Shown here: positions 9,933 through 60,333 of the stretch, in pieces
Position numbering within the stretch: the first letter of the stretch is position 1
How the letters are laid out: every line of letters begins with the position of its first letter
Source: Bacillota bacterium
GTDB lineage: Bacteria; Bacillota; Sulfobacillia; UBA8153
Assembly (NCBI GenBank): GCA_040756655.1
Contig: JBFLYN010000002.1
Location: 72,634 to 136,633 of the forward strand
Length of the DNA stretch: 64,000 bases
Reading direction: 5' to 3'
Made by a program: the position numbers and the translations under genes
The notes under the pieces: model-generated
Databases searched by the model: none
What the model saw: the letters and a program-made list of their open reading frames with translations, nothing else
What the model was told of the DNA's origin: nothing

Positions 9933-9957
9933 ATTTCCGAACGTGTGTCCTAGCTGC

Positions 9958-37666: not shown

Positions 37667-37973
37667 CGGCCTGATCCTGTCGGACTTGGCTGAGCACGTG
37701 CCCGCCCGGATGGGTGGGCATGCTTGTTTGCGGGGCCGTTTGCCATGATTCCCATTTGTGCTGAATTTCCCTTATGTGGAGGAATTGGGAGGGCCGACGA
37801 GAAATAGACAGGTGGCTTCTTTGTCTGTCACCGGCTGCCCAGCACGTATAGGGAAACCAGCCGCGGGCCGGGCATGCCGGGTCAATGGGCAATGCTAACT
37901 GAAGATGATCGAAGCCGTCGAAAACCGCCCTCTCCCGGGCGGAGAAATGCGAAGAAAGCAAGGAGGACTGCGC

Positions 37974-41853: not shown

Positions 41854-43359
41854 CTAGCGCAAGGGGATCTCCCAGTTACCATACACCAGGAGCTGGAGCC
41901 CGGTAGCGCGTAGCGCTGTGATGGTCATCCCCGGGGGGAGCTCGAATCGCTCGCCTGCTGTAACCCGGCCATCATGATGGGACCCGGTAGTGTGGTGTGA
42001 ACTGGCGGGCAAAAGGCCGCCGCGGGCATCCACCAGCTGCCAGTCCAAAAGACCCCATCCCGGCGAGCCCTCGGACCAGCTATAGCTCAGGTGCAGGTAA
42101 CCATCGCGGCACACAACTTCCTCGACGAGGAACTCTACCCCCTCCACGCTGCTGGTGAACGGTCCATTCCCCACTGCCAGTTCCAACTCTACCGGTACGT
42201 TAAGGGCCAGCACCGGCATGACCAGGGTAACCTGGCCGTCGGGTGGGCGAGGGAAGGCCAGCACCATATCCCAGCTGCCGTCCTGCCTCCCCCGACCCCG
42301 GGCGTGCTGGGGATTCAGCCGGCTCCCATCCGGGAGGAGCAGGTAGGGAACGTGGTGTTCGAGCTTGATGCCGCTGGGCGACAAGCCGCCGCTGATCATG
42401 TAGTTGACCATCAACTGGGCCGGGGTATCGGTGACCAGCACCTCATGGACCAGAACGCCCTCCATCTCGTGGCGGTATTCGATGCCATACTGCCGGCTCA
42501 TGGCACTGAGCTCAGCCCTCGAAAGTTCCAGCTTCACTTCCAACGTGGCGGCGGGACCGCGCAGCTCGCGGGTGACTTCGGCCTCTGCACTGGGAAGGGC
42601 TTCGGCGTGGACCATGCCTACCAGGCCCAACGGGGTGACCAGTGGCTGCCCCTTCCAGAATGGTACGCGTTCACCGTTCACACCGGTGATGACCAAAGGC
42701 GGGATCCAGCCTGCGAAGCCCTCCGCCGGCACCACTCCCGAGACAGCCCAGGGGTCGGGTGGGAGCCCGTCGATGAGGTACAGGATGGTGGTCTGCAGTG
42801 GGTCGGCCACTGCGCCCAGGATCTTGAGGCGCACCTTGCCGGCGCGCACGTCCGCCATGGGTTTTTGGATATACCCGTGTTCGTAAGCCCAGCTCAAACC
42901 AGCGTCGGTAAACACCAGTCGCTGCACGAACTCGCCCACCAGCGGCAACTCCGCCGAGGCCTTGACCAGGGCTGACCAGTTGGCCATGGCCACCACCATG
43001 AGCACCAGCCCGGCGGCTAGTGCCCGCATCCCGGGGAAGCGGCGGCGCGCCCGGGAGAGGGGGAGCCTGCACGGCTCACCGAACAGGTCCGCCACCCAAA
43101 GGCGTTCACGTTCGGCCTGCTCCGGGGTTAACCGGTGCCGGTGCTCGGCCAGCCAGCTGGCCACATCATGCTGGCGGCCCGTATGCGGCGCGTGGAGCAG
43201 TCCTTCCCGCAGGCGCTTCTCCAGGACCTCCAGCTCAACCCGGGCCCGGGCGCAACCAGCGCAAACCTGGAGATGCTCCTCCATGGTCCGGGTCGTTGGG
43301 CCATCGAGCTCTCTTCCCAGCAGGGCGGGGAGTTCGGACCTGACTACTTCGCATAGCAC
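41854..43359 (-). CDS. Anti-sigma factor (zinc-finger ZAS type, HxxxCxxC) with TM segment and a large extracytoplasmic domain
   Basis: EEHLQVCAGCARA (zf-HC2) lies near the N-terminus, followed by a predicted TM (LAAGLVLMVVAMANWSALV). The gene overlaps the ECF sigma gene stop. Confidence 0.65.
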   Translation of the reverse strand: MLCEVVRSELPALLGRELDGPTTRTMEEHLQVCAGCARARVELEVLEKRLREGLLHAPHTGRQHDVASWLAEHRHRLTPEQAERERLWVADLFGEPCRLPLSRARRRFPGMRALAAGLVLMVVAMANWSALVKASAELPLVGEFVQRLVFTDAGLSWAYEHGYIQKPMADVRAGKVRLKILGAVADPLQTTILYLIDGLPPDPWAVSGVVPAEGFAGWIPPLVITGVNGERVPFWKGQPLVTPLGLVGMVHAEALPSAEAEVTRELRGPAATLEVKLELSRAELSAMSRQYGIEYRHEMEGVLVHEVLVTDTPAQLMVNYMISGGLSPSGIKLEHHVPYLLLPDGSRLNPQHARGRGRQDGSWDMVLAFPRPPDGQVTLVMPVLALNVPVELELAVGNGPFTSSVEGVEFLVEEVVCRDGYLHLSYSWSEGSPGWGLLDWQLVDARGGLLPASSHHTTGSHHDGRVTAGERFELPPGMTITALRATGLQLLVYGNWEIPLR

Positions 43360-43829
43360 TTTGCAGGCACCTCCTCGAGCATGGTTCGCAACTGTTTCAG
43401 CGCCCGGTTCAGCCGGGATTTGACTGTGCCCACGGGTATGCCCAGCACGTAGGCGATGTCCCGTTGTGGCAGGTCTGCCAGGTACGGGAGCACAACCACC
43501 TGTGCGACCTCAGGACTGAGCTGGTCCACCAGCATCCAGATGAGACCGCTCTCAGCCGTGGCTTCCTGCTTTCTCTGGCAGGCGGCGTCCAGGGGGATCA
43601 CCTGGCGGCGCCGCCGCAACGTCTCACCGCACTTGTGGATCAGGATCGTCCTAAACCATGGCGCGAACCTCTCCGGTGAACGCAGCTGGCCGCGGGCCAC
43701 GTAGGCAGCCAAAGCCGCTTCTTGCAGGGCATCCTGCCCATCTGCATCGTTGCCCGTGATGGCCCGGGCCAGCGCGGTCATGGTCCTCTGCACCCTGGCC
43801 AGATGAGCAATGAATTCCTGATCGGTCAT
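43344..43829 (-). CDS. ECF (sigma-70 family) RNA polymerase sigma factor
   Basis: Region 2 (DALQEAALAAYV...FAPWFRTILIHK) and region 4 (DIAYVLGIPVGTVKSRLNRALKQLR) are both present. Confidence 0.85.
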   Translation of the reverse strand: MTDQEFIAHLARVQRTMTALARAITGNDADGQDALQEAALAAYVARGQLRSPERFAPWFRTILIHKCGETLRRRRQVIPLDAACQRKQEATAESGLIWMLVDQLSPEVAQVVVLPYLADLPQRDIAYVLGIPVGTVKSRLNRALKQLRTMLEEVPAKCYAK

Positions 43830-44065
43830 GGTTCCTCCAATCGCTCTGTTCACCATACAAGAGGGCCCGGGAGGGACATTTCGTTCGCCAGGGCGCAAAC
43901 TTCCTCTTTGCCGGGGCTTGGGCCAGTGGCCGACCAGTGCACCTGTCGCGGCCGGGCACGGGCCCAGCTACGACTCCCATGGGAATACGAGGACATACAT
44001 GAACTACCGCGGCTGGCGGGATCCCGGCAGTTCGGGTCAAAGGAGAATGGCGCCGTGCCGGCCAA

Positions 44066-45936: not shown

Positions 45937-46725
45937 CTAGGCGAGATGGTCGTGTGCAGAAAGCGGGACCACGTGGGGACACGGGTATAAGGGGTGAGGC
46001 TGCACCAGGACCTGGATGCCGTAGACTTCCTGCAGAAGGCCGGGGCCCAGCACTTCGGCGGGAGTGCCACTGGCCCGCACCCGCCCGTCTTTGAGCATGA
46101 CCAGGTGGTGACAGAAGCGGGCCGCCAGGTTTAGGTCGTGCATAACCATGACCACGGTGAGGCCGGTGCTCGCGTTGAGACGAGCGATGAGGTCCATGAT
46201 TTCCACTTGGTAGCCAATGTCCAGGTAGGCTGTGGGTTCATCGAGCATGAGCAGCCTCGGTTCCTGGGCCAGGGCCCGGGCCAGTTGCACCCGCTGCCGT
46301 TCTCCCCCGCTCAAGGTGGTCACCAGGCGCCCGGCCAGCCGGTCCGTGCTGGTGACCTCCATGGCACGCCGGGCAGCCTCGAAGTCTGTTGCCTGCTCGC
46401 CCCGCATACCCTCTAGATGCGGGTACCTGCCCATCAGTACCAGTTCCTCAACGGTGAGTTCCACGTCCACCTGCCCGTTTTGGGATACTACGGCCATGGT
46501 ACGGGCCACCTCCCGGTGGGAGAGGGAATAGATGTCACGGCCGTCCACCAGTACCCGGCCGACCCGGGGACGGAGGACCCGGCTGGCGGCTCGCAGCACC
46601 GTGGTCTTGCCCGAGCCGTTGGGACCCGCGATACCCAGGATCGCCCCGGCAGGCACGTGGAACGAGACTTCGCGCACGGCCACGAAGTTACGGTAAGAGC
46701 AGGTGATCCTATCGACCGTTAGCAT
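45937..46725 (-). CDS. btuD: Cobalamin/iron-siderophore ABC transporter ATP-binding protein (BtuD/FepC-like)
   Basis: 262 aa. GPNGSGKTT, LSGGERQRV and LLMLDEPTAYLD motifs are present. Confidence 0.85.
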   Translation of the reverse strand: MLTVDRITCSYRNFVAVREVSFHVPAGAILGIAGPNGSGKTTVLRAASRVLRPRVGRVLVDGRDIYSLSHREVARTMAVVSQNGQVDVELTVEELVLMGRYPHLEGMRGEQATDFEAARRAMEVTSTDRLAGRLVTTLSGGERQRVQLARALAQEPRLLMLDEPTAYLDIGYQVEIMDLIARLNASTGLTVVMVMHDLNLAARFCHHLVMLKDGRVRASGTPAEVLGPGLLQEVYGIQVLVQPHPLYPCPHVVPLSAHDHLA

Positions 46726-46728
46726 GGT

Positions 46729-47826
46729 TCACCTCCTCGGCTTCTTTCGCCGCACCAGCAAAAACAGAAAGAACGGTCCTCCTACCAGCGCGGTCACTAC
46801 CCCCACCGGCAGTTCGGCCGGGACCATCACCGTGCGCGCGAGCAAGTCAGCCAACACCAATCCGCTGGCACCCGTCAGGGCCGCCCCGGGCAAGAGCCAG
46901 CGCTGGTCGGGGCCGAGTGTCAGCCGGACCATGTGGGGTATGACCAGCCCCACAAAGCCGATAAGCCCGGCCACGGATACCGCAGTGGCGGTGAGCAGGG
47001 CCGCTGCTGCCAGGAGTTCTCTCTTCACCCGCTCTACGTCAAGCCCGAGGTGGGTGGCAGCTTCCTCCCCGAGCAGCATCACGTTAAGCTCCCGGCTGCG
47101 CCTGAGCAGGACCAGGGCGCCCAAGATCATGTACGGCAACGACAAGCCCACACTGGACCAGCGGGCGGAGGTAAATCCCCCCATCAACCAGAAGATGACC
47201 TGTTCCATGCGCTGGCGGGACAGCACGATAAGGAGAGACACCAGGGCGGACAAGATGGTGCTCATGGCCACGCCGGCCAGGAGCAGGGTAACCACGGGAA
47301 GCTTGCCGTCGATGCGGGCTAGGGTGTAGACCAGCGCCAGCGCGACCACGGCCCCGCCGAAGGCGAAAGCCGGGATGGCATACTGGCCCAGGCCCCGGCC
47401 CCACCCCAGCACTATGGCCAGCACTGCGCCTAGCGCACCTCCTGAGGAGACCCCGATGACGAAGGGGTCGGCCATGGGGTTGCGGAAGACGCCCTGGTAG
47501 GTTGCCCCGGCCAGGGCCAGTGCCGCGCCCACCATGCCAGCCAACAACACCCGGGGCAGGCGGATGACCCAGACTATGGTCTCATGACTGGCAGTCCACG
47601 AGGAGGTGGGAGCGAAGGCAGGTACCAACCTGCCGGTGATGATGCCGATCACGTGGCCAGCAGGCACCGGCACCGCACCCATGCCCACGGCCACCACCAT
47701 CACCAGGACGGTAGCGGCCGCCATGAGCCAGACGGCGTGACGCCGGGCTTCCCACCTTCGCTCCAGGTCCATCCTGTCTCTCCTATCTGAACAACTGCGG
47801 GTGTAGGCCCCTGGCCACCAGTTCAA
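46729..47826 (-). CDS. btuC: FecCD-family ABC permease (BtuC-like)
   Basis: 365 aa. FecCD signature ...AGMVGAALALAGATYQGVFRNPMADPFVIGVSSGGALG. Confidence 0.85.
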   Translation of the reverse strand: MNWWPGAYTRSCSDRRDRMDLERRWEARRHAVWLMAAATVLVMVVAVGMGAVPVPAGHVIGIITGRLVPAFAPTSSWTASHETIVWVIRLPRVLLAGMVGAALALAGATYQGVFRNPMADPFVIGVSSGGALGAVLAIVLGWGRGLGQYAIPAFAFGGAVVALALVYTLARIDGKLPVVTLLLAGVAMSTILSALVSLLIVLSRQRMEQVIFWLMGGFTSARWSSVGLSLPYMILGALVLLRRSRELNVMLLGEEAATHLGLDVERVKRELLAAAALLTATAVSVAGLIGFVGLVIPHMVRLTLGPDQRWLLPGAALTGASGLVLADLLARTVMVPAELPVGVVTALVGGPFFLFLLVRRKKPRR

Positions 47827-48718
47827 GCCCGTCCACGATGCGCGGGCCGGGACGTGAGACCACGTCCGGGTCAGGGAACAATACCCGCTGGTTCTTCACG
47901 GCGGATAGCTGATCCCAGCCGGGTTTGGCCTGCAGCTTGGGGTATTCATCCTTGGGAACGGCGACGATGATCACGTCCGGGTCCTTGGCCAGCAGCGCTT
48001 CCATGCTGTACTGGAGGTAGGCGAACCCTTCGGAGGCCGCGACGTTCACGCCTCCCGCCACCGTGGTCAGGTGGTCCATGAAGGTCCCGGGGCCTACCGT
48101 CCAGAGATCGATATCGATGACCCAAAAGACCGACGGTCTGTCCTTTGCGTCCCGGGTCTTCTCCTTGATCGCATGGTACCTTCCCCTCAGGGTGTCCACC
48201 AGTTGCTCTGCAGCTTGGGTCGCGCCGGCAACCTTGCCCACCAGTACTATATCCTCGAAGACTTCCTCGATGGTAGCACTCTGGGTTACCACGGTGGTCA
48301 GGCCGAGTCTCCGGGACTCTACTACGATCTTGCTTTCTGCCGTCCCAACCGCCAGCACCAAGTCGGGTTTGAGCCCGGCGATGAGCTCGTAGTTTGGGCT
48401 CCACTCGTCTCCTACACTGGGGATGGCTGCTGCCTCAGGGGGGTGGTTACAAAAGCTCGTCCTCCCCACCACCTTGCTCCCCAGGTTGAGAGCAAACAGG
48501 ATCTCGGTCAGGTTGGGGGCCATGGAGATGATGCGCCCCGGCTGCGCCGCGATGGTCACCTGTTGCCCGCTCCGGTCGGTCACCGCAAGCGGCCACGGGC
48601 TGGGCGGGGGTGCCGGGGCGGGGGTGGGAGTGGCACTGGTCTGGGAGAACCAGTTACACCCCGAAAGCGACGCCACCAACATTACCACAAGGACAAGGCC
48701 GACAAACGTTTTGCGCAT
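47783..48718 (-). CDS. btuF: Periplasmic/lipoprotein cobalamin-binding protein (BtuF-like, cluster A SBP)
   Basis: Lipobox LSGC. The protein is BtuF-like (...KPDLVLA...). The start is the second Met of the ORF. Confidence 0.8.
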   Translation of the reverse strand: MRKTFVGLVLVVMLVASLSGCNWFSQTSATPTPAPAPPPSPWPLAVTDRSGQQVTIAAQPGRIISMAPNLTEILFALNLGSKVVGRTSFCNHPPEAAAIPSVGDEWSPNYELIAGLKPDLVLAVGTAESKIVVESRRLGLTTVVTQSATIEEVFEDIVLVGKVAGATQAAEQLVDTLRGRYHAIKEKTRDAKDRPSVFWVIDIDLWTVGPGTFMDHLTTVAGGVNVAASEGFAYLQYSMEALLAKDPDVIIVAVPKDEYPKLQAKPGWDQLSAVKNQRVLFPDPDVVSRPGPRIVDGLELVARGLHPQLFR

Positions 48719-48743
48719 ACGTACATCCTTCCTCACGAAAAGA

Positions 48744-48779: not shown

Positions 48780-48867
48780 GTTGTGCCGGGTGCCTCGCCC
48801 GGTCAGTCCATGCACCCCCCTTTCCTTCGAAGGCAAATGTGCACCGGCGCGGCCAACGCCGCGCGTT

Positions 48868-49020
48868 CTTTCAGGCAGGTCTCCTGGCTTCGGATCATGG
48901 CCTGCGGGGGCCTTCCCGTCAGCTGACAGTGGCTCTGTCCCCTGGGCTTCCCGTTCACAGTGGCGGGACCGCGCCGGAATTCCACCGGACTTCCCTATTC
49001 TCCCTTGAGGGCACCTGAAA
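48868..49020 (-). ncRNA. Cobalamin (AdoCbl) riboswitch aptamer
   Basis: Minus-strand RNA has P1 UUUCAGG...CCUGAAA, GGUGCC...AAGGGA, GCGGUCCCGCCACUGU and a B12 box AGCCAGGAGACCUGCC at 48874..48889. It sits upstream of btuFCD. Confidence 0.85.
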
Positions 49021-49287
49021 GACTATGGAGTTATCATGTCCATTTTACTCCACCCGGGCGGTGGTGGCAAGACCAACCCGGGCGGCAGCAAGACCATTGG
49101 GTCAGAAAAACCCGGGCGTACCCGGCCTTGGGGTGTTGGGCTCGCTGTTGCACCCGCTCACGTTCAGGCCATCGGGCTCTCCTTACCTCCTCTTAACCCC
49201 AAGGGTAGGTGGAAACGCCGGGGAAAACACCACTCTATGATGGCTGACACCGACGTCTTCTGCCCCCATACTGGTACAGGCGTTTGG

Positions 49288-50661
49288 TTAGCACACCACT
49301 TCCACGTTGTTCTCGGCCACCGTCACCACGGTGCCATCTAAGAGCTCCACGTCCACGGTGTAGAGGCTGATCTCTGTTTCTAAACGCACGCGACTGCCCA
49401 ACACCGACACCACCCGGCCGTACTGGCCAAAGTGAGTAAGACGGGTGATCCTCACCATAGCCCCGGGCACCAGTTCTCCGCCAGCGCGCGCTACCTGGAC
49501 ATCCGCGTCAGGTAGGTCCGGGGAGATCCCTTCCCCCAGGGGGATGATGACCTCCGGCCGGACGGCTCCCGCCCGGATCTGGGTGCGGCCGTTAACCGAC
49601 GCGATGGCACCCTCGTAGGCGCATAAGAGGTTATAGGCACGCTGGGACATGGGCATGACTCCGAATCCCCCGGTGATTACCACGGTGAGGGGGAGCTCTT
49701 CTTGGCCGGTGAGCCCTACCATGACCTCCCGGCCCAAAAGCTTTACCACGTCCAGGTGGTTGATCCCGCCCGAGATGAGCCCGGTGGCCTTGACCTCCAG
49801 GGCGCGGTTCATAGCCTCCAAGGACGCCAGGGCCCCACCGAATACCACGCATCCCTCGTGAGACGGCAGGATATCCGCGGCTTCCAGGACCCGGTCGGGG
49901 CCGGCAACTCGCGCCAAGGGCCCATAAGCCTCGCCACCCAGGCCGAATAAGCCTTCGATATAGGCCGCGGCAGTAGAGACCTCGGCGCTGTCGCCCGGGT
50001 TGACTGCGGTTACCTCGCCCCTGATGTACGCATCTACCTCGGTGGGACGGGCGGGTCGCACAATGGTGATGGCGCCGGTGCGGGTGCAGATCTTCTCCAC
50101 CACTCCACTGACGGGAGCATACGCGCAGTCCCACCCCAGGGGCGACGGTGCCGCGGCCAGGATCTGGCCTTGCTTTACCTCGTCTCCCTCACGGCAGTGA
50201 GCGTAGGTCCTCAACATGCGCGGCCAAACGTCCAGCTGCTTGGCCGCCGAGACCACGACCACCGGCCGGGCAGAGCGCCCGTCCTCCCGGATGAGTACGC
50301 GACCGTGTAGCCGGGAGATGAACTCCACGACTCCCGTGACCGGCGACTTAACCACGACGACTTCACCCAGGAAACCCTTGGTGTAACGGGCAATGATGTC
50401 ACCACCAGTGACCTGGTCGCCCACCTGCACGGTCATGACCAGGTCCATGAGATCGGGCCCGGCCTTTTCCCTGGGCACCATGAGCGCCCGCATCACGTCC
50501 ACAAAGTAAGGGGCGCCGGGCAGCAGGTCGGTGCGGGCCACTATGGTCGAAGGTTCTACTGTCGAACCGGCACTGACCAGCACGTCACCGGGCAATGGCA
50601 ACCGGCGCTGTCTGCTGACCCGGGCCTTCTCCATGGTCCTTACCATGAGGTTCTCGGTCAA
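49288..50661 (-). CDS. Uncharacterised partner protein A1, translationally coupled to the MutL/GlmL-like ATPase. It has repeated barrel-sandwich (lipoyl/biotinyl-like) motifs and a KOW-like C-terminus.
   Basis: 457 aa with no recognised family. Motifs: VQVGDQVTGGDIIARY, CREGDEVKQGQILAAAP, GGFGVMPMSQRAYNLL...RTQIRAGAVRPEVIIPLG. It is a paralog of 59221..60333. The start abuts the upstream stop. Confidence 0.5.
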   Translation of the reverse strand: MTENLMVRTMEKARVSRQRRLPLPGDVLVSAGSTVEPSTIVARTDLLPGAPYFVDVMRALMVPREKAGPDLMDLVMTVQVGDQVTGGDIIARYTKGFLGEVVVVKSPVTGVVEFISRLHGRVLIREDGRSARPVVVVSAAKQLDVWPRMLRTYAHCREGDEVKQGQILAAAPSPLGWDCAYAPVSGVVEKICTRTGAITIVRPARPTEVDAYIRGEVTAVNPGDSAEVSTAAAYIEGLFGLGGEAYGPLARVAGPDRVLEAADILPSHEGCVVFGGALASLEAMNRALEVKATGLISGGINHLDVVKLLGREVMVGLTGQEELPLTVVITGGFGVMPMSQRAYNLLCAYEGAIASVNGRTQIRAGAVRPEVIIPLGEGISPDLPDADVQVARAGGELVPGAMVRITRLTHFGQYGRVVSVLGSRVRLETEISLYTVDVELLDGTVVTVAENNVEVVC

Positions 50662-52470
50662 CTAGACCACCTCCCGGCCGGCATACTTCCGGAGAGCGCT
50701 TTCAGGGTAGGCATGCATGGCCAGCCACCAGTCCACGAGAGCTCGCCGTCGTAGAGCTGGATCCTTAGGTAGCTCCAGCGGGCGACCCCGTCCGTCCAGG
50801 ATGAGCCCTACCTCTCCCCCGCTCACGTTGACTCTGAACGGCTGTTTGCGACCCCTCCCGGCGTCCCACCCGGAGCGAGGTATCACCTCTAGTTCCATCT
50901 CTTCCCCGGGTCCTAGCGGGACCAGCGCCATTTGACCAAAGACCAGATCCAGCTCCTGTCCGGGCATAGACACCCGGGCGATGGACTGACCCGGTCGCCC
51001 GGTGCCCGCCGGGGCCAACACCGTCCCCAGGGGAATGAGGCATTCCTGCCAAAGGGTGTCCAGCGCCTCCTTGGGCCTGAGGTCCAATAGCGCGCCAAGC
51101 TGGGGCAACATGAACACGCTGTCTACGAAAAGCCGGCACACTCCCACCGGAGCCAGAGCGTCCAGGAGCAAGAGAGCGGCCTGGGCCCGGCGCGGGGCGT
51201 GGGAAAGCACCCCTCCGGAGCCGATCACGGCACCCACTTCCCTCATGTCCACCAGGGGTTGCCCGGTGGACGTCTGGTCGAATACCCGGTCTGCCGTCCT
51301 CCTCTGGCGCACGCCCTTGAGCGTCACCGCCAGGGAGTTGTGATGCTCAAATGAGAGCCTGAGTGCATCCCGGGCCGCGGCGTGCTCCAGCAAAAGCTCG
51401 TCCATGGTCTCTGGCAAGGTCGTGGGCCTGATCACCTTGTTGGAATACCAGTTCCGCAAATCTCCCTCGGAGATGTAAAAGGGCAGCCAGGACTGCACCC
51501 GGTCCAGACTGGCTTCCTTCAGGACATTGCCCAGGCTGTAGCTCATGCCCAGGTTGGCGCTGACGGTGCGGTGGAACCGGCCACTGGCCACCGAAAACAC
51601 ATCGGTGGTGGCGCCCCCGATATCCAGGGCCACCACGTCCGTATCCAGGTACGCTGCAACCTGCTGCACCATCTTGCCCACGGCCATGGGAGTGGGCTGC
51701 AAGTGCCCGCCGGTCCAGTCCAGCAGGGTCTGGTAGCCCGGGGCCTGCGCCATGACATGCTCCAGGAAGACCCGGTGGATCTCTTCCCGGGCAGGCTGCA
51801 ACACCTCTTTTTCCAGGGTGGGCCTGATGTTCTCCACAAAAGAAAGCAGCATGCAGTCTCCCAGGGTGGAGGCGACAAATTCCCGGGCGTGCACGTTTCC
51901 GGCATAGATTACCGGCAGCCGAAAACCGCTGCCGAACCTTGGTTCAGGACTGGCAGCAGCTAGGTATTCGGCCACGGCACCGACGTGACTGGGCAGGCCT
52001 TCGTCGGTTCCTCCCGTAAAGAGGATCATGTCGGGCCGCAGTTCTCGTACCCTCTGGATGCGCTCCACCACCAGGCGGGCATCATCCATGGAGATCACGT
52101 CCATGACGATGGCCCCGGCTCCGAGTGCCGCCCGCTGGGCACTTTCGGCGGTCAAGTTCCGGACTAGCCCGGTAACTAGCATCTGCAGGCCGCCTCCGGC
52201 CGACGATGTGGCCAAAAAGAGGTCGGCGCCCCGGGATGACGTGCCCGGCACCACGAGGCGGTCTCCATCCAGGAGTGGGCGACCGGTCTCGTTGGCAAGC
52301 CTGCTCATGGCGTTTTTCAGCCCGATCATCACGTCCAGAAAGGGTTTTTCCACGGTGGTTGGCGCCGCCGCGCGCCCGCGCAGCCGGTACCCCTGGCCAT
52401 GGTACTCCAGCAGGATGGCTTTGGTCGTAGTGCTCCCCACATCAGCGGCAAGGATCGTCCTGATCTCCAC
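50662..52470 (-). CDS. MutL/GlmL-family protein A2 (ASKHA-fold ATPase, hydantoinase-A-like; the family of the glutamate mutase component L), long 602-aa form
   Basis: The N-terminal phosphate-1 motif ILAADVGSTTTKAIL, VALDIGGATTDVFSV and VIGSGGVLSHAP are present. It is ~140 aa longer than canonical GlmL and is a paralog of 60336..62153. Confidence 0.7.
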   Translation of the reverse strand: MEIRTILAADVGSTTTKAILLEYHGQGYRLRGRAAAPTTVEKPFLDVMIGLKNAMSRLANETGRPLLDGDRLVVPGTSSRGADLFLATSSAGGGLQMLVTGLVRNLTAESAQRAALGAGAIVMDVISMDDARLVVERIQRVRELRPDMILFTGGTDEGLPSHVGAVAEYLAAASPEPRFGSGFRLPVIYAGNVHAREFVASTLGDCMLLSFVENIRPTLEKEVLQPAREEIHRVFLEHVMAQAPGYQTLLDWTGGHLQPTPMAVGKMVQQVAAYLDTDVVALDIGGATTDVFSVASGRFHRTVSANLGMSYSLGNVLKEASLDRVQSWLPFYISEGDLRNWYSNKVIRPTTLPETMDELLLEHAAARDALRLSFEHHNSLAVTLKGVRQRRTADRVFDQTSTGQPLVDMREVGAVIGSGGVLSHAPRRAQAALLLLDALAPVGVCRLFVDSVFMLPQLGALLDLRPKEALDTLWQECLIPLGTVLAPAGTGRPGQSIARVSMPGQELDLVFGQMALVPLGPGEEMELEVIPRSGWDAGRGRKQPFRVNVSGGEVGLILDGRGRPLELPKDPALRRRALVDWWLAMHAYPESALRKYAGREVV

Positions 52471-52488: not shown

Positions 52489-53745
52489 CTAGAATCCACC
52501 GCAGCGCCCGCACTGGGCGCAAGAGGGGTTGGGGTTGAGGTAGACCCGGCGGTTGTAAAGGAGCTGGTCCACGGTGGCCCGCCGGGTCAAGGTGACCGGG
52601 ATCCAGCTGCCCAGGACCAGCGCTCCAGCGGCCAGCCATGCCGACGCTGCCAGGGCCCCCACTTCCAGACGCAGGGCGGGCTCATTGTAACGGTTGATAC
52701 CCCAGATCAAGCCGGACGCCAGGACCCAACCACCAAACATCCCAAGAAACGACATGAACCCGGCCTCCGCCACCAAAAGAAGACCCAGCTCGGAAGATTC
52801 CAGTCCAAGTGCTTTGAGCGTCCCCAGGTACCGCTTTCTCCTAAGGAAAGAGAACAACATGAGGTTGAAGAGCCCGGCAGCTGCAAGCGTCACCACCAGC
52901 CCCATGACGGCCCTTACCGGCGATAGCGACCGGCGGGTCAAGCTCCTGGCCAGTTCCTGCGGTGTGTCGCGGGTGATAACCACCCCTTGGGCGAAGAGCC
53001 CGCCCAGCTTGGCGACGGCAGAGCGCAGCGTGTACCCCGGACCCAGCCAGCCTACGACTCCCCCGTGCACGGCCTCACCGAGAAGGGCCAGGGCGTCCAG
53101 GCTTACCAGGGGGCCAGATACTGGCGCCCCCGGAGAATGGTACAGGCCGGTGACCAGCACCCGGACTTCGTGCCACCCGGCCTGGCCCGGCACGCCCAGG
53201 GTAGTCACCATCCCGGGTATCATACCCCCGGCAGTATCCGGGAACACGGCGTGTCCGTGTACTCCGCCGGGCGGGCGGCCCACCGGCCAGCGGCCGCTCG
53301 TCAGGGAAAGCCCAGCCACCAGCCGGGAGTCAAAGCGCAGGCCCAGGGCGGTGTAGCGTCCGGAGGCCGTGTACACTTCCGCCACAGCCACCGGTTCCCA
53401 GTAGTCGATTTCCACCACCCGGAAGACCCGCCGGTCTATGTCGGCGGGCAGGGGCCCGGGCGCATAGGCCAGGAGGTCAGCCGGGAGGCCGAGGGGCAGG
53501 ACCTGGGCGGCCGCCTGCCGGGAGGCAGTAGCCCCCACCGCCGTGAGCAGGATATAAGCAGCCACGGCCACGCTCACCACCACGGCCAACAACGCGCTTT
53601 GCAGGCGGTGCCTGGCCACGTGACGGCGGGCCAACGGACACACCAGGCGTAGGGAAGCCCCTAGCTGTCGGCATAAGTTCCGTCTCCACAAGGCGCCAGA
53701 CTGACGGGAAAGCCACTGGCCCGCAGCAGTGGCCCAGCCCATCAT
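52489..53745 (-). CDS. MacB/FtsX-type ABC transporter permease (4 TM with a large extracytoplasmic loop) carrying a C-terminal Cys cluster
   Basis: C-terminal FtsX domain (LKALGLESSELGLLLVAEAGFMSF...). The tail is NPNPSCAQCGRCGGF. The N-terminal start is uncertain. Confidence 0.7.
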   Translation of the reverse strand: MMGWATAAGQWLSRQSGALWRRNLCRQLGASLRLVCPLARRHVARHRLQSALLAVVVSVAVAAYILLTAVGATASRQAAAQVLPLGLPADLLAYAPGPLPADIDRRVFRVVEIDYWEPVAVAEVYTASGRYTALGLRFDSRLVAGLSLTSGRWPVGRPPGGVHGHAVFPDTAGGMIPGMVTTLGVPGQAGWHEVRVLVTGLYHSPGAPVSGPLVSLDALALLGEAVHGGVVGWLGPGYTLRSAVAKLGGLFAQGVVITRDTPQELARSLTRRSLSPVRAVMGLVVTLAAAGLFNLMLFSFLRRKRYLGTLKALGLESSELGLLLVAEAGFMSFLGMFGGWVLASGLIWGINRYNEPALRLEVGALAASAWLAAGALVLGSWIPVTLTRRATVDQLLYNRRVYLNPNPSCAQCGRCGGF

Positions 53746-54446
53746 GGCTTCATCACCCCGGCCCGTTCCTCAACGCGCACCACCGTCCCGTCCAGCATGT
53801 GCACGACCTTGGTAGCATATTCCACGAAAGCCTGGTCATGGGAGGCGATCACGAAGGTCTGGCCGTGCCGGGAGTTGAACCGGGCGAATAGGTCCATAAC
53901 CTGACAGCCGCTTTGGGAGTCCAGGTTACCCGTGGGCTCATCAGCCAGCACCACAGCCGGGCGGTTGGCCAGCGCCCGGGCCACGGCCACTCGCTGCTGC
54001 TCGCCGCCGGACAGCTCATGGGGGGAGTGGGCGGCCCGATCGACCATGCCCACTTCGTCCAGGAGCTCCAGGGTACGGCGGGCCACTTCCCGGTCGTCAA
54101 CACCCGTGATGCGCATGGGCAAGGCGACGTTCTCCGCAGCAGTCAGGTCAGGGAGCAGGTTGAAAAACTGGAAGACAAACCCCACATGGGTCCTGCGCAT
54201 CCGGGCCAGCTGGTTTTCCGAAAGACGGCTAAACTTCCGGTTCTGCAGTATGACCTCCCCGTGGGTGGGGCGATCCAGCCCGCCCAGGAGGTTGAGCAAA
54301 GTGGTCTTGCCACATCCGGACGGGCCCATGATCACCACGAACTCGCCCGGCATCACCAACAGCCGGACGTCCTTAACCGCGTCCACCCCATCGCCCACCA
54401 AGAAACGCTTATGTAGCTCATTGCACCTGAGGATAGGTTCACTCAT
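53742..54446 (-). CDS. ABC transporter ATP-binding protein (LolD/MacB-ATPase type)
   Basis: 234 aa. GPSGCGKTT, LSGGEQQRVAVARAL and VLADEPTGNLD motifs are present. Confidence 0.85.
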   Translation of the reverse strand: MSEPILRCNELHKRFLVGDGVDAVKDVRLLVMPGEFVVIMGPSGCGKTTLLNLLGGLDRPTHGEVILQNRKFSRLSENQLARMRRTHVGFVFQFFNLLPDLTAAENVALPMRITGVDDREVARRTLELLDEVGMVDRAAHSPHELSGGEQQRVAVARALANRPAVVLADEPTGNLDSQSGCQVMDLFARFNSRHGQTFVIASHDQAFVEYATKVVHMLDGTVVRVEERAGVMKP

Positions 54447-55824
54447 GACGTAGCACCTCCCGGGCTGTGGAACCGGAAGCTAGAACCGCTGGAATTACCC
54501 CAGCAGCCAGGGCCGTCACTGTGCTCAGGCCCGTGACCAGGCCCGCTGTATAGAGAGTGCTCAGGCCGGCCCGGGCCAAGGTCACGTCCGAGGCCAGGTA
54601 TACCAGGACGTAGAAAGCGCGCACCAGGGCAAACCCCATAATAGAGCCGAGGGTGGCAAGTACCACGGTCTCTCCCAGCACCATGAGGATGATCTCACCG
54701 CCTGATGCCCCGATGGCCTTGAGGATGCCGATTTCCCGCCTGCGCTGGGTGACCAGGATGAGCATGTTGGTAGTCACCAGCATACCAGCCAAGGCAAAAG
54801 AAAGGTAGATGAAGGCCCGGGTGGCATCCCGGGTCACCGGCATTTGCCCGGTGTGGCTCCACGATGCCTGGACCAGCTGGGGGACCGTCAGCACCCGTGC
54901 CCAGGGCAGTTCCGCCTGCAGGCTGGCGGCTACATCCCGGGCCAGGAACATACTCCGCACCCTGACCCCCAGCTGGCGGACGTACCGGAAGCCTCCGGTT
55001 CCGCCCACGGAGGCAAAGATCCTCTCCAGGGTAGCGGCGGGCACGAAAATCTGCTCAGAATGGAGATACCTAGGCTCCTCCAGCGAGTCCATGTCAAGCC
55101 CCCGGGCAAGGAGGTCCGTGGCGCTGGCCACAAACTCGTAGGTCCCCCTGACTTCAAGGGTGAAGTGATGGCGCCGGGTGTAATCGTACACAGTTCCCCC
55201 GGGGCCGTGAGCCACCACGCTGGGAACCTCCACAACCAGGGCTGTGACCCGGCTAAGGTCAGGCCAACCCGGGGGAATCTCGCGGTTGACCAGGCAGACC
55301 ATGGCACCATCGTCATCCGGGGTCAGAGCGTGAAGGTTCCAGGCAGCCGCATCCACAAGGGTGTGGCGTCCCCGCAGCACCGCCGGAACCAGGGCGGTAG
55401 TTCCCGGCACTATGAAGAAAGCAGGCATGGCCAGGAAGGGTTCTACAGCGATGACCTCCGGGTGCTCTAACCCACCCGGCAGATGGTGGAGGTCCATGGT
55501 GCGCACGTCTGCAGGAGCCAGGTACCCCTGGTGGGAGAAGGCGGGGAAGAACGTGAGCAAGTCGCTTTCATGGCCTTCTAGTCCCATCATCCAAGAAAGC
55601 TCTTCTCCACTGCTTGGGCCGGGGAGGACAGCCGGCTCGGTGAAGATGAGGATGTCGGCTCCAACCAGCCGCCGGTGCTCCCAGAAAGCTTCTCGCGGAT
55701 AGCCGCTTTCCATGGAAACACTCCCGGTCAGTATAGCCGCAGCCACGGCCATCCCTACCAGGGCCAGCAGGCTCCGGTTGAGGTTGCGACGGGCATTGCT
55801 CAGCGCCATCCTGAGAAACAGCAT
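54439..55824 (-). CDS. MacB/FtsX-type ABC transporter permease
   Basis: 461 aa. N-terminal TM, a ~280-aa extracytoplasmic domain, then a C-terminal FtsX 3-TM bundle (ILKAIGASGGEIILMVLGETVVLA). Confidence 0.7.
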   Translation of the reverse strand: MLFLRMALSNARRNLNRSLLALVGMAVAAAILTGSVSMESGYPREAFWEHRRLVGADILIFTEPAVLPGPSSGEELSWMMGLEGHESDLLTFFPAFSHQGYLAPADVRTMDLHHLPGGLEHPEVIAVEPFLAMPAFFIVPGTTALVPAVLRGRHTLVDAAAWNLHALTPDDDGAMVCLVNREIPPGWPDLSRVTALVVEVPSVVAHGPGGTVYDYTRRHHFTLEVRGTYEFVASATDLLARGLDMDSLEEPRYLHSEQIFVPAATLERIFASVGGTGGFRYVRQLGVRVRSMFLARDVAASLQAELPWARVLTVPQLVQASWSHTGQMPVTRDATRAFIYLSFALAGMLVTTNMLILVTQRRREIGILKAIGASGGEIILMVLGETVVLATLGSIMGFALVRAFYVLVYLASDVTLARAGLSTLYTAGLVTGLSTVTALAAGVIPAVLASGSTAREVLRHE

Positions 55825-55889
55825 CTTCTTCCCCCATTTCCACCAGCCGGAAGCGGAGTTCCGGGGCTTTATGGGTTTGGCTGGGTATT

Positions 55890-56576
55890 CTAGGCGGGCA
55901 GGCTGTCCACCAGCCTCCCGTCCAGCATGCGGACAACGCGCTTGGCGTAGGGGTGGAAGGCTTCGTTGTGGGACACAACCACGAAGGTCTGTCCCAGGGT
56001 GCAGTTGAAATTGGCGAAAAGCCGGGCGATCTCCTGCGCGTTACGAGAATCCAGGTTTCCCGTGGGTTCGTCAGCCAACACCACCCGGGGTTGATTGGCC
56101 AATGCCCGGGCTATGGCCACCCGCTGCTGTTCGCCACCGGAAAGCTGCAGCGGCCTGTGATGCATCCGGTCACCTAACCCCACCATCTCCAAAAGCTCCT
56201 GGGCCCGCCGTTCCATCTGGCGCCGGGAAAACCCGGAAAAGCGCAGCGGCAGGCTGACGTTTTCCGTGGCAGTAAGGTGAGGTATCAGGTTGAAAAACTG
56301 GAATACAAAGCCGACCTTGGCCCTTCTCAGCATGGCCAGGCCACTTTCACTAAGACGGCTGAACCGGTGACCGTCCAAGACCACCTCGCCGCTGGTCGGG
56401 CGGTCCAGCCCTCCTAGGAGACTGAGGAGCGTGCTCTTGCCGCTACCAGACGGGCCCGTCAACACCACGAAGTCACCGCCATCCACATCCAAGCTGACGT
56501 CGTGTACCGCTTGGACGGTCTGGCCCAAGAAAAAGGTCTTGGTCAGCTCAAAGGCACTGAGAATGGGCTCGTTCAT
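55890..56576 (-). CDS. ABC transporter ATP-binding protein (LolD/MacB-ATPase type)
   Basis: Start MNEPILSAFELTKTF. GPSGSGKST, LSGGEQQRVAIARAL and VLADEPTGNLD motifs are present. Confidence 0.85.
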   Translation of the reverse strand: MNEPILSAFELTKTFFLGQTVQAVHDVSLDVDGGDFVVLTGPSGSGKSTLLSLLGGLDRPTSGEVVLDGHRFSRLSESGLAMLRRAKVGFVFQFFNLIPHLTATENVSLPLRFSGFSRRQMERRAQELLEMVGLGDRMHHRPLQLSGGEQQRVAIARALANQPRVVLADEPTGNLDSRNAQEIARLFANFNCTLGQTFVVVSHNEAFHPYAKRVVRMLDGRLVDSLPA

Positions 56577-56602
56577 GGTATTCCTCCTGCCCAAAACAGT
56601 TT

Positions 56603-58186
56603 TCAACTGGAATTCTGGCGGTACCTCCTGGGAGTTACACCCTCGGATTTCTTGAACACCCGGCAGAAATAGTTAAGGTCTCGGTATCCCACCTGGCGGG
56701 ATATGGCCGTTACAGATAGCTGAGTGGTGGCAAGGAGTTGTTTGGCACGAGCTATGCGGATGGAAGTCAGCTTCTCCACAAATGTATGGCCGGTCTCGTC
56801 TTTGAAAATGTGGCTAAAGTAGTAAGGGCTCAAGTGGACCACGGAGGCGATTTCCTCAAGGGTGATGTCACGCGCATATTCCCGCTCAAGATACCGCAGG
56901 GCTTTTTTGACCAAGAGCAGGTTACGGGCATTGCGGTTCTTCTTCACCGACCCGGCCAGGGCCTGGGCACCTTGGGTTAGCAGTTCGCCTGCGTAGGCTG
57001 GGTCGCCCGCCTCCAGGCCCGCCTCGACAGCACGTGCCCGGTGCAGGTCAACAGCCTCCTTGTCTGCACCGCCATCGCTTCCGGCCTTGACCATGGCCAG
57101 GAGCAGCTGGAGTACTGCCAGTTTCGCCACGGTATGTCCTGAAGACAACAGCCGGACCACCCCAGGCTGAAGGGACTCGGATACCTCCTGGGCCCGTTCT
57201 GGGTCTCCCAGCCTGATGGTGCGTAAAAGCTCCTCCACGGCCTCAGCTGGCAGCGTTTCGGCATCGTCATCTACTTCGATGTCATCCACGTGCAACACCT
57301 GGCGCGGAGGGCAATAAGACCGGGCTCTCACGGCTTCTCGGTATGCGCCGGACAGGTCTGGAGGATGACGGCTGATCCGGCCCGTCCCGGCGTTCACCTC
57401 AAACCCCCGGGCCCGCATGCCTTGGACCAGTCTCGTCCCCAAGTCCAGCAGGTACTTGCGACCCCGGGCGGGATCCGCATCGGGCACCACTACCACCACC
57501 GCCACGCTGCCGCCGCCGGCGTGAGCGGCCAAGGCAACCCCTTGGGGCAGGAGCTCCCGCACTGCCTCCAAGGCCTGCTGGCGCCCGAGCTGGCGTTCTG
57601 CCTCAGTGCCCGGGAGGGTCTCGGTCCTTCCCACGGACAGGACGGCCGAAGGGATGCCGGCAAGGCCCAGGAAATGAGCGCGGTCCCGGGCGGCGGCCAT
57701 ATCCAGGCTCTGGCCGCTGATGAGTTCGGACACATACTCCATGCCGATGATGGGCAGGGCTGTTTCCAGTTGCCTTCGCAATTCCAGTTCCCGCTGGCGC
57801 CTGGCGTCGTCCCGGATTATGGCCGCCAGGGCATCCCGGAGAGCAGCTACCAGTTCGGACGGGTGCACCGGCTTGAGCAAGTAGTCTACCGCACCCAGCT
57901 TGACAGCTTCCTGGGCAAAGCGAAACTCATCGTAGGCCGTGAGGATGATGACCTTGACTTCCGGGCGTGCCGCCAGGATCCGCCGGGAAGCCTCCAAACC
58001 GTTGAGGACCGGCATGTTCAAGTCCATAATGACCACGGCCACGTCCTGCTCCAGAACGCTTTCCACCGCCTCGGCACCGTTGCCTGCTTCCAGGATCTCT
58101 AGCTCTTCCCCCAGGTGCAACTGGACTGTACGGGCCAAGAGCAGTCGCTGCAGGGCTTCATCGTCAACGAGCAGCACTTTTCTCAT
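56603..58186 (-). CDS. Response regulator, CheY receiver plus AraC-type HTH (YesN-like)
   Basis: Receiver domain with the phosphoacceptor in VVIMDLNMP. The C-terminal AraC HTH is ...YFSHIFKDETGHTFVEKLTSIRIARAKQLL. Confidence 0.85.
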   Translation of the reverse strand: MRKVLLVDDEALQRLLLARTVQLHLGEELEILEAGNGAEAVESVLEQDVAVVIMDLNMPVLNGLEASRRILAARPEVKVIILTAYDEFRFAQEAVKLGAVDYLLKPVHPSELVAALRDALAAIIRDDARRQRELELRRQLETALPIIGMEYVSELISGQSLDMAAARDRAHFLGLAGIPSAVLSVGRTETLPGTEAERQLGRQQALEAVRELLPQGVALAAHAGGGSVAVVVVVPDADPARGRKYLLDLGTRLVQGMRARGFEVNAGTGRISRHPPDLSGAYREAVRARSYCPPRQVLHVDDIEVDDDAETLPAEAVEELLRTIRLGDPERAQEVSESLQPGVVRLLSSGHTVAKLAVLQLLLAMVKAGSDGGADKEAVDLHRARAVEAGLEAGDPAYAGELLTQGAQALAGSVKKNRNARNLLLVKKALRYLEREYARDITLEEIASVVHLSPYYFSHIFKDETGHTFVEKLTSIRIARAKQLLATTQLSVTAISRQVGYRDLNYFCRVFKKSEGVTPRRYRQNSS

Positions 58187-59231
58187 GGTCACCCTCCCCA
58201 TCGTGGGTGGTAAAAGGGATGCATATGGTCACCCGGGTTCCCTGCCCCGGAGCTGACTGGATATCCAGACCATACTCCTGGCCAAACTGGTGCTGGAGAC
58301 GCCTGTGCACGTTGCTCACTCCCAGCCCGGTAGTATGCCCTTGTCCGGAACCGGCATCGCTCATGGACCGGATGGTGGATAGACGGGCCGGGGGGATGCC
58401 TACCCCATCGTCGGTGATGGTAACGTATACCTCTGCTTCGCTCAGCCGGGCATCGATCACGATAAGCCCCCGATCGCGGGACTCAAAACCGTGGATGATC
58501 GCGTTTTCGACCAGCGGCTGGAGCGTGAGCAGAGGGATCTTAGTCCTGAGCACTTCGGCGGGTACGTCGAGCCTGGTACTCACGCGTTTGCCGAACCTGG
58601 CCTCCTGGATGGTCAGGTAATCCTGGACGTGGTGAAGCTCATCTTCTAGGCTGACCATTTCGCCGATGCGCCGGAGGGAATACCGGAGGAGCCTGGCCAG
58701 AGCGTGGACCAGCCCTTGGGTGGCCATGGCACCGTCGAGCATGGCCTGGGCGGCGATGGTGGTAAGGGTGTTGAAGAGGAAGTGGGGGTTGATCTGGGAC
58801 TGCAATGCTCTAAGTTCCATTACCCTCAAGGCCTCTTCTAGTTCAGCGTTGATCTTCAGTTCCTCGATGAGGCGGGCCTGCACTTCCCCACTGTACTGCC
58901 TCCACCAAGTGGCGGTGGCCCGGGCGGTCACAAAGTCGGCCGCCACCCGCACCCGCAGGGCGCTAGAGCCGACGTGGTCTTCACGGGGACAGCAGGAAAC
59001 GTAAGCCAAGGTCACTCCTTCCACCGACACCGGCGCAGCCGTCACCGGCACCTCGAGGCACTCTTCGCCCTTCCCTTTCACGAGGACGTGCTGGTGGGGG
59101 TCGCGCAGGCAAAGGCAGCAACCGGCCAAAGGGCCAAGTTCGCCGAAGGCCTTCTCGATCGTATCCAGATCTACCAGGCTCCTCAGGTCTACCGTCTTTT
59201 CTACCAAAGGATGTGTCACCTCACCGGGCAT
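58164..59231 (-). CDS. Soluble (no TM) YesM/LytS-type histidine kinase (His_kinase PF06580 plus HATPase) with an N-terminal cytoplasmic sensor domain
   Basis: QINPHFLFNTL is the H-box of the LytS/YesM class. The ATPase domain is ...LVENAIIHGF...DDGVGI...GLGVSNV. The N-terminal ~140 aa have Cys pairs (CCLC, SCC) and no hydrophobic segments. Confidence 0.75.
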   Translation of the reverse strand: MPGEVTHPLVEKTVDLRSLVDLDTIEKAFGELGPLAGCCLCLRDPHQHVLVKGKGEECLEVPVTAAPVSVEGVTLAYVSCCPREDHVGSSALRVRVAADFVTARATATWWRQYSGEVQARLIEELKINAELEEALRVMELRALQSQINPHFLFNTLTTIAAQAMLDGAMATQGLVHALARLLRYSLRRIGEMVSLEDELHHVQDYLTIQEARFGKRVSTRLDVPAEVLRTKIPLLTLQPLVENAIIHGFESRDRGLIVIDARLSEAEVYVTITDDGVGIPPARLSTIRSMSDAGSGQGHTTGLGVSNVHRRLQHQFGQEYGLDIQSAPGQGTRVTICIPFTTHDGEGDHEKSAAR

Positions 59232-60333
59232 AAAGCTCCAGGTTTGAGCGGGGCACCATCACCAGCTCTCCACTATCCAACCGGACCGCGGCCACCTGTA
59301 CTTGGGAGCCTGTCTCCAGGGTCACCCTCTGTAACGGGAGGTCCACAACGGTACCGATAGCCCCAAAATGGCGGGGGCTGATGATGCGGACGGGGGTACC
59401 CACGAAAACCGTCGCAGGTCCCGGCAGCGGGGGGGCATGGTCCTGGGCAAGGTCCAGGGGGATCACTGCCTCGGGCCTAACTACCCCGGCCCGGACCTGG
59501 GTGGCTCCACTCACTGCCGCCTGCCGGCCGTCCAGCTCCTGGACCAGGCGGTAGGTGCGCTGGCTCATGGGGATGGCTCCAAAACCCTCAGTCAGAACGG
59601 TTATCAAGGTGGTATCTTCGTGTCCCGTCACACCGGTGCCGATGACGCGGCCGGCTATGCGATCTAAGTCGCGCTTGTGCAACCCCCCGGTGATCACTGC
59701 CACTGCTCCCACTTCGCGCACCCGGGTCAGGGCTTCGTAATCGTCCCACACGCCCCCGACCAGTATCTTCCCTGAGTGCTGCGGGCCAATGTCCCGGCTC
59801 CGTATGGGGGCCGTGCGTTCGCCTACCAGGCAAAGCTCGCCCCAGCCTTCCCCACCGACGCCGAAGATCCCCTGGACCAGGGCAGCCCCAAGGCGGATAG
59901 AAACTAATTCACCCGGTATTACCCGGACCACCTCCCCCGGGACATAGGCCCTCAGCGCCACCGGCAAGCTCCTGATGGTCACCCTACCGGTGGCTGGAAA
60001 GAGGCGCTCCAGGGTACCGGCCATGGGCGCCCGGCATTCCCGGTTGAAAAGGCCCAGGGTCGAACGGTACCGGGCTATGACTTCACCGGCCAAGACCCGG
60101 TCCCCTACCTTCCGGAGCAAGGCGTCCGGAACCAGCACCGATGGGATCTCCAGTATCCTGGCCACATCCACAGTCTCCAGGTAGCCCCGGGGGTTGAGCA
60201 GGGCAACCACGGTATCGTGCTGGACTCGCTGGCCCGGGTATACGCAGATCTCGCCTGAGGAGGGCAGGCGCCGTTGTTTGATCAGATTTCGCCCGGGGCT
60301 GATCTCCAGTCCCGGCAGGTGGATTTCACCCAT
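59221..60333 (-). CDS. Uncharacterised partner protein B1 (paralog of 49288..50661), translationally coupled to MutL-like B2
   Basis: 370 aa. Shares EGFGAIPMSQRTYRLV...ATQVRAGVVRPEAVIPL and the N-terminal RRLP...G motif with A1. The ATG lies 2 nt after the upstream TAG. Confidence 0.5.
   Translation of the reverse strand: MGEIHLPGLEISPGRNLIKQRRLPSSGEICVYPGQRVQHDTVVALLNPRGYLETVDVARILEIPSVLVPDALLRKVGDRVLAGEVIARYRSTLGLFNRECRAPMAGTLERLFPATGRVTIRSLPVALRAYVPGEVVRVIPGELVSIRLGAALVQGIFGVGGEGWGELCLVGERTAPIRSRDIGPQHSGKILVGGVWDDYEALTRVREVGAVAVITGGLHKRDLDRIAGRVIGTGVTGHEDTTLITVLTEGFGAIPMSQRTYRLVQELDGRQAAVSGATQVRAGVVRPEAVIPLDLAQDHAPPLPGPATVFVGTPVRIISPRHFGAIGTVVDLPLQRVTLETGSQVQVAAVRLDSGELVMVPRSNLELYAR

Follow-up and report, generated by a model that had tools for sequence, protein, structure and literature searches.

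A conserved hybrid-barrel, swivelling-domain and KOW-barrel protein family as the likely partner of a GlmL-type ASKHA ATPase

Two paralogous genes, A1 and B1, were analyzed in a 64-kb stretch of a Bacillota contig (JBFLYN010000002.1); this whole stretch of 64,000 nucleotides (nt) is called the window. Each gene is proposed to encode a dedicated partner subunit of the GlmL-type actin-fold (ASKHA) ATPase encoded immediately upstream, A0 or B0, with which it would form a heteromeric complex. Such a complex is quite likely, because the ATPase and partner genes are adjacent at 53 of 79 loci and occur as two natural gene fusions. The pair of ATPase and partner probably marks an undescribed ATP-driven cellular machine. 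Its folds and its ATPase family are known, while the combination of domains, the partner family and an associated membrane unit are without a characterized counterpart.

Adjacency was scored for 79 partner genes having at least 2 kb of upstream sequence. A GlmL-like gene lies directly upstream on the same strand in 53 of them, and one gene stands between the two in 10. Exact gene calls gave gaps of +1, -1 and +2 nt between ATPase and partner. In the window, the TTG start of A1 abuts the TAG stop of A0 (0 nt), and the TAG stop of B0 is followed by 'gc' and then by the ATG of B1 (2 nt). This agrees with the first-pass annotation of the same DNA, made from the sequence by a model, which had placed each start within 0-2 nt of the stop of a MutL-like gene and had proposed a complex of the two products. 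That proposal is strengthened by the adjacency across loci and by two independent fusions, P0261 (995 amino acids (aa), L087:2029-5016) and P0360 (1003 aa), both starting with the Pfam MutL domain and ending with the partner. The P0261 fusion is in an operon with CdsA and DUF6754. Neighbor-joining trees of the cognate pairs, which carry no support values, are partly congruent, the long partners including A1 forming a clade and A0 grouping with B0. An extra gene of ~750-1900 nt separates the GlmL-like and partner genes in loci from Zixibacteria and Ignavibacteria (L008, L017, L018, L044, L056, L061, L076, L080 and L082), with two such genes in L080.

The upstream ATPases, which are 51% identical to each other, match Pfam PF13941 (MutL/GlmL) over the whole 450-position model, with E values of 1e-111 for A0 and 1e-120 for B0. 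Members of PF13941/GlmL are glutamate-mutase accessory proteins, actin-fold ATPases related to hydantoinase A. The 'MutL-like' label of the first-pass annotation therefore holds as a Pfam match, while its meaning changes to a GlmL-type ATPase; mismatch-repair MutL was rejected, since Pfam 'MutL' PF13941 is GlmL. The ATP-binding motifs DxGSTTTK, DIGGATTD and GSGGVLSHAP are intact. With the GlmL accessory protein of glutamate mutase (PF13941; NF040745, NF040744, TIGR01319), A0 and B0 share the ASKHA core with intact phosphate and adenosine motifs, but both score below all NCBIfam GlmL cut-offs (A0/B0 215/232 vs 475 bits for NF040745, 189/208 vs 600 for NF040744 and 167/172 vs 204 for TIGR01319). 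The canonical form is also without the ~125-aa C-terminal beta domain found in A0 and B0. In B0 this domain is accompanied by a flavodoxin-like insert (residues ~86-215), which matches CheY-like receivers equally well. Unlike GlmL, A0 and B0 are paired with a hybrid-swivel-KOW protein, and no glutamate mutase or ornithine aminomutase gene is nearby in the window. Canonical GlmL is itself poorly understood.

The coordinates first given for A1 and B1 were retained, and their strand was corrected to minus from the translations (Table 1). The minus-strand open reading frames contain all peptides quoted in the first-pass annotation, and a plus-strand reading was rejected because its frames are rich in stops. 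Using BLASTP, A1 and B1 were found to be 38% identical over 326 residues (E 5e-55), with a second aligned segment at E 5e-10; by these alignments they are true paralogs, as had been claimed. The start of A1 may be placed in two ways. The TTG has the better upstream GGAGG, whereas an ATG 15 nt downstream was chosen by gene callers in two independent assemblies, giving 452 aa, and an exact 452-aa copy of A1 is present in other assemblies. The one-strand ten-gene array of the window recurs in two independent assemblies and is therefore not an assembly artefact. Its order is amidohydrolase, B0, B1, histidine kinase, AraC-type response regulator, ABC, FtsX, ABC, FtsX, A0 and A1.

Table 1. Genes and domains of the two pairs in the window, neighboring btuFCD-like genes, and gene families recurring beside the pair at other loci.
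Feature	Location	Strand	Description
A1	49288..50661	-	Long paralog, 457 aa from TTG; from translation and paralogy to B1
A1, alternative start	ATG at 50646	-	452 aa
A1 residues 10-128	50278..50634	-	First barrel-sandwich hybrid unit; family profile positions 12-124, E 7e-27; NQRA_N, DUF2118
A1 residues ~134-207	50041..50262	-	Second, duplicated hybrid-barrel core, extra relative to B1; profile positions 52-124 matched again; RnfC_N
A1 residues ~208-375	49537..50040	-	Predicted swivelling beta/beta/alpha domain; approximate boundaries mapped from the B1 model
A1 residues ~395-457	49291..49479	-	Predicted KOW/SH3-like C-terminal barrel
B1	59221..60333	-	Short canonical paralog, 370 aa
B1 residues ~1-124	~59962-60333	-	Predicted hybrid barrel
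B1 swivelling domain	~59458-59961	-	Predicted from the model
B1 residues ~305-367	~59233-59421	-	Predicted KOW-like barrel
A0	50662..52470	-	GlmL-family actin-fold (ASKHA) ATPase, 602 aa; Pfam MutL E 1.7e-111
B0	60336..62153	-	GlmL-family ASKHA ATPase, 605 aa
btuF-like gene	47783..48736	-	Periplasmic binding protein
FecCD permease gene	46729..47826	-	
ABC ATPase gene	45937..46725	-	
c2	Upstream of pair, other loci		100-140 aa protein
c7	Upstream of pair, other loci		~155-aa two-pass membrane protein
c4	Downstream of pair, other loci		DUF6754
c6	Downstream of pair, other loci		~215-aa multi-pass protein
c5	Downstream of pair, other loci		~283-aa bitopic protein
c3	Downstream of pair, other loci		~240-aa multi-pass protein

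To establish the domain architecture, an AlphaFold model of B1 (predicted local distance difference test score, pLDDT, 86.5) was used. As modeled, the architecture of A1 and B1 is a barrel-sandwich hybrid domain followed by a swivelling beta/beta/alpha domain and a KOW/SH3-like barrel. The hybrid barrel of B1 matches BCCP, NqrA-N, RnfC-N and DUF2118, and its C-terminal barrel matches Spt5 KOW5 with a template modeling (TM) score of 0.83 at 1.4 A, which bears out the KOW-like tail noted earlier. The 'Gly-rich core' of the first-pass annotation is, as modeled, the swivelling domain, which in A1 carries the motifs GLFGLGGE, TGQEE, TGGFG and TQIRAGAVRPE. The hybrid-barrel motifs were confirmed in A1, where Pfam RnfC_N scores 33.0 bits on residues 157-195 (gathering score 25.6) and NQRA_N 29.3 bits on residues 72-123 (gathering score 25). 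With these scores the motifs are more than chance; of the two paralogs, only A1 exceeds the gathering scores. No hydrophobic segment was found in A1, B1 or B0, and A1 and B1 are predicted to be cytoplasmic.

The family hidden Markov model (HMM) matches A1 twice, with profile positions 12-124 on residues 10-128 and positions 52-372 on residues 134-456. By BLASTP, A1 residues 17-125 and 137-195 both align to B1 residues 19-121. Since profile positions 52-124 are found twice in A1, the extra residues of the longer copy represent a hybrid-barrel core duplicated in tandem close to the N-terminus; the ~90 extra residues described before are present, and their placement in the middle of the protein was incorrect. 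A1 also lacks the N-terminal YTPGL strand motif and has TGGFG (residues 326-345, ~49627..49686 on the minus strand) where 96% of the family has TEGFG. This Glu-to-Gly change is seen in only 4 of 44 long forms, and it may reflect functional divergence of the A1 copy. All named members of the long, double-barrel subfamily are Bacillota. A long and a short pair stand in tandem in five other Bacillota loci, ~0.3-1.4 kb apart, and the presence of two cognate pairs, one with a duplicated hybrid barrel, suggests two specialized versions of the complex.

A profile search of 1.84 billion representatives placed at least 3,783 clusters at 50% identity in the partner family at E <= 1e-3, including 1,278 at E <= 1e-30. 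Scanning the GTDB species genomes identified at least 592 carrier species in Bacteria and Archaea, among them Bathyarchaeia, other Thermoproteota, Methanomethylicia, Zixibacteria, Eisenbacteria, Planctomycetota, Armatimonadota, Poribacteria, Bacillota and Synergistia. B1 is identical to an NCBI 'hypothetical protein' of a Bacillota metagenome-assembled genome (MAG), and homologs are named 'hypothetical' or, occasionally (in UniRef), 'KOW domain-containing protein'. No Pfam or NCBIfam model, PDB relative or relevant literature was found for the family. Searches of Pfam, NCBIfam, PADLOC and PDB sequences returned no assignment covering A1 or B1; in the PDB, nothing was found for A1 and only chance-level matches for B1 (E >= 0.055). 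The family stays unassigned, as first described, with no confident match to HyuB, NqrA/RnfC or PduL that explains all segments.

In an alignment of 114 representatives less than 50% identical to each other, ~30 positions were conserved at 95% or more. Most of the near-invariant residues are Gly, Thr, Glu or Arg and belong to the loops GGE, TGxE, TEGFG, TQxRAG and RPE, with no His, Lys, Cys, Asp or Ser among them. In alignments of both 52 and 114 sequences, no Lys is invariant or conserved at 95% or more. Position 238, a His in B1, is Asp in 32% (37) of the 114 representatives, Asn in 12% (14), His in 11% (12) and Gln in 11% (12). Because no Lys or His is near-invariant, a role as a carrier of biotin, lipoyl or phosphohistidine is disfavored.

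The folds of the partner are shared with several known systems. With BCCP, GcvH and E2 lipoyl domains it shares the hybrid barrel, but it lacks their conserved hairpin-tip lysine of the MKM or DKA type. The swivelling beta/beta/alpha fold is shared with phosphoenolpyruvate (PEP)-utilizing enzymes (Enzyme I, PEP synthase, PPDK and rifampin phosphotransferase). A phosphohistidine carrier of this type was rejected, given the rarity of His at position 238 and the absence of a match to Pfam PEP-utilizers. NqrA and RnfC resemble only ~100 residues of the partner, the first ~100, and TIGR01936 nqrA scores 21 bits against a cut-off of 321. The partner is also without NuoF-like, SLBB or Fe-S domains, and the membrane proteins neighboring the pair have no sequence similarity to any PDB chain, NQR/RNF subunits included. 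No nqr or rnf operon surrounds A1 or B1, whose neighbors in the window are the amidohydrolase, GlmL-like, two-component system, ABC/FtsX and btuFCD-like genes. With no full-length match and no such operon, the assignment to NqrA/RnfC was rejected. HyuB was rejected as well, as neither protein matches Hydantoinase_B at E <= 0.01 in Pfam or NCBIfam. A defense system was rejected, with no PADLOC match for A1, B1, A0 or B0.

The candidate client of the pair was obtained by clustering the neighbors of 82 partner-centered loci, after which families c2-c7 (Table 1) were counted by HMM. At least one of the four membrane genes (c4, c6, c5 and c3) occurs in 32 of the 82 loci, all four in 25, and c2 in 40; 170 of the 182 matches to the four membrane genes, c2 and c7 are co-directional with the partner. 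The operon of L086 reads 97 aa protein, GlmL-like, partner, DUF6754, 226 aa, 284 aa and 224 aa, with stops and starts that overlap or abut. A reciprocal scan centered on DUF6754 showed that c4-c6-c5-c3 form an invariable unit, which is often repeated in tandem as two or three copies. The pair adjoins this unit in ~12 of ~24 DUF6754-centered loci with enough flank and is directly upstream in all but one. Among the recurrent neighbors only DUF6754 has a Pfam model, and no NCBIfam model, PDB sequence relative or relevant literature was found for them. Homology was not detected between the two multi-pass proteins or between the two bitopic ones.

Several metagenome contigs (L104, L119, L120, L131 and L166) carry the DUF6754/c6/c5/c3 unit in three tandem paralogous copies. 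In L109, L126, L139, L161 and L169, two or three copies of the unit stand beside a single GlmL-like/partner pair or beside a partner gene at the edge of the contig. One ATPase pair may serve up to three tandem copies. In L007, L021, L064, L066, L045 and L052, mostly Eisenbacteria-like MAGs, genes for GcvH and two GcvP subunits lie upstream of the cluster and a lipoate ligase of the LplA/LipB type lies downstream; these neighbors may represent lineage-specific synteny rather than a functional link.

In the proposed mechanism, the GlmL-type ATPase would bind and hydrolyze ATP, and the mobile swivelling domain would come from the partner, its five conserved loops forming an interface or a co-catalytic site. 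The hybrid and KOW barrels would act as docking modules, so that the swivelling domain and the two small barrels could link the nucleotide cycle to a client. For this role the four-protein membrane module of DUF6754 and three unnamed membrane proteins is the most likely candidate; in many bacteria and archaea its genes share an operon with those of the pair. We regard it as an evenly balanced proposition that the pair is the cytoplasmic energizing or assembly module of an undescribed membrane machine, with A1/B1 as the ATPase partner subunit. That the DUF6754 unit is its client, which is suggested by gene neighborhoods, falls a little short of an even chance. Only tentatively is the pair put forward as the cytoplasmic motor of an unrecognized ancient membrane machine, a transporter or assembly system, that includes the 100-140 aa protein and the four-gene membrane unit; the components of this machine are common to many bacterial phyla and TACK archaea.

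Several observations weigh against this membrane-machine proposal. For about half of the DUF6754 modules, the nearest 7-8 kb contain no pair, and tblastn and HMM searches found none of the membrane-module genes in the 64-kb window. Upstream of 16 of the 79 partner genes, a GlmL-like gene is missing from the sequence inspected (up to 6 kb, with 3 kb or more available), and in Armatimonadota the ATPase and partner genes are both present but unlinked. A1 itself deviates from the near-invariant TEGFG motif, and the strongly conserved polar residues of the partner would fit a soluble enzyme equally well.

By analogy with HyuA/HyuB of the hydantoinase, oxoprolinase and acetone carboxylase type, such an enzyme would have two subunits and depend on ATP; the GlmL-like subunit would act on a small molecule by phosphorylating or activating it, the partner would contribute a second catalytic site, and the membrane linkage would reflect substrate uptake. 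GlmL-family proteins show weak matches to Hydantoinase_A and Hydant_A_N, the conserved polar residues in the Gly-rich loops resemble an active site, and sequence identity is as high as enzymes typically show, at ~40% for Archaea against Bacteria in the partner and ~54% across bacterial phyla in the ATPase. The amidohydrolase gene 100 nt upstream of B0 and the absence of the membrane genes from many loci, the window included, also fit. However, the partner matches neither Hydantoinase_B nor any enzyme family, its folds are typical of mobile and docking domains rather than catalytic cores, His, Cys, Lys, Asp and Ser are missing from the near-invariant positions, and no metabolic gene recurs beside the pair across lineages. 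We consider a soluble enzyme unlikely. Still less probable is a membrane-associated scaffold comparable to FtsA/PilM in place of an energizing module; here the actin-fold protein would organize the membrane proteins of the DUF6754 unit, with the partner acting purely as an adaptor. The co-operonic membrane genes and the SH3/KOW and hybrid barrels, which are common adaptor folds, are in line with it, but neither an amphipathic helix for membrane targeting nor a hydrophobic segment was found in B0, A1 or B1.

That the pair reactivates or chaperones a cobalamin-dependent enzyme, as canonical GlmL is presumed to do and the diol dehydratase reactivase DdrA/DdrB has been shown to do, is judged as improbable as the scaffold. 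The DdrA structure carries a swivelling domain as an insert, and by analogy the partner would provide in trans what DdrA has in cis; relative to DdrA/DdrB (PDB 2d0o), the swivelling domain here is on a separate polypeptide between the hybrid and KOW barrels, and B0 has its flavodoxin-like domain where DdrA has the swivel insert. In favor are the membership of the ATPase in the GlmL family and the cobalamin riboswitch with a btuFCD-like operon directly downstream of A1. Against this, the insert domain of B0 matches CheY-like receivers just as well, and A0 and B0 fall below the GlmL cut-offs. Neither a DdrB-like subunit nor a B12 enzyme is found in the context of the A1/B1 pairs. No GlmS/GlmE, ornithine aminomutase or other B12 aminomutase, and no B12-dependent mutase, eliminase or B12-binding family, was detected among the 40 window proteins scanned, which do not comprise every small open reading frame, or in the recurrent neighbor clusters of the 82 loci. 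A B12 link through the riboswitch was rejected: the btuFCD-like genes form a separate unit, divided from A1 by terminator-like and promoter-like sites, and the riboswitch is missing from 10 other loci. Finally, it is very hard to credit that A1 and B1 bind nucleic acid or the ribosome through the KOW tail. Their C-terminal barrel matches Spt5/NusG KOW domains and ribosomal eL14/eL27, and the UniRef 'KOW domain-containing protein' names point the same way, but SH3-like barrels such as NdhS match equally well. Unlike NusG/Spt5, with which the KOW/SH3-like barrel is shared, the partner has no NGN domain (no Pfam NusG/NGN match) or other nucleic-acid-binding domain, its N-terminal domains being a hybrid barrel and a swivel, and its gene is found among those for an ATPase and membrane proteins, never beside genes of transcription or translation.

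The A1/B1 system would thus be an ASKHA ATPase with a dedicated partner subunit, possibly a new class of ASKHA-ATPase-driven machinery. Although the pair is highly conserved and present in hundreds of lineages, most of them uncultured, none of its subunits has a name, a structure or a paper; all loci retrieved for the analysis came from uncultured MAGs. A distinct and much more widespread GlmL branch, with a dedicated partner, fusions and a link to a membrane unit, offers a testable entry point. Several thousand 'hypothetical protein' entries could gain an annotation, and the P0261 and P0360 fusions would be ideal targets for structure prediction of the complex.

Other features of the window surround the two pairs. 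The cobalamin riboswitch (RF00174, 116.6 bits) is at 48857..49033 on the minus strand, directly upstream of the btuFCD-like genes, and between it and A1 are a terminator-like hairpin at 49125..49112 and a promoter-like site at 49070..49042. The interval between the pairs (52489..59231, minus strand) holds co-directional genes for a LytS/YesM-type histidine kinase, an AraC-type response regulator and two MacB-like sets of ABC ATPase and FtsX permease; the histidine kinase gene overlaps the 3' end of B1 by 11 nt, and A0 starts 18 nt after the last FtsX gene. The amidohydrolase upstream of B0 (62253..63482, minus strand) is most like Xaa-Pro dipeptidase (NF051886, 311 bits vs a 500-bit cut-off). 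A molybdenum-cofactor riboswitch (RF01055, 75 bits, 19085..19224, minus strand) precedes two MoeA-type genes at 17591..18817 and 15673..17574 (minus strand), one of them fused to a PBP-like domain. The housekeeping context, at 1200..11502 (minus), 37905..39737 (plus) and 41854..43898 (minus), includes, from purine biosynthesis, PurL-like AIRS, PurF-like, adenylosuccinate lyase and GMP synthase genes, as well as xanthine/uracil permease and formate-tetrahydrofolate ligase genes and an ECF sigma factor with a zf-HC2 anti-sigma factor.

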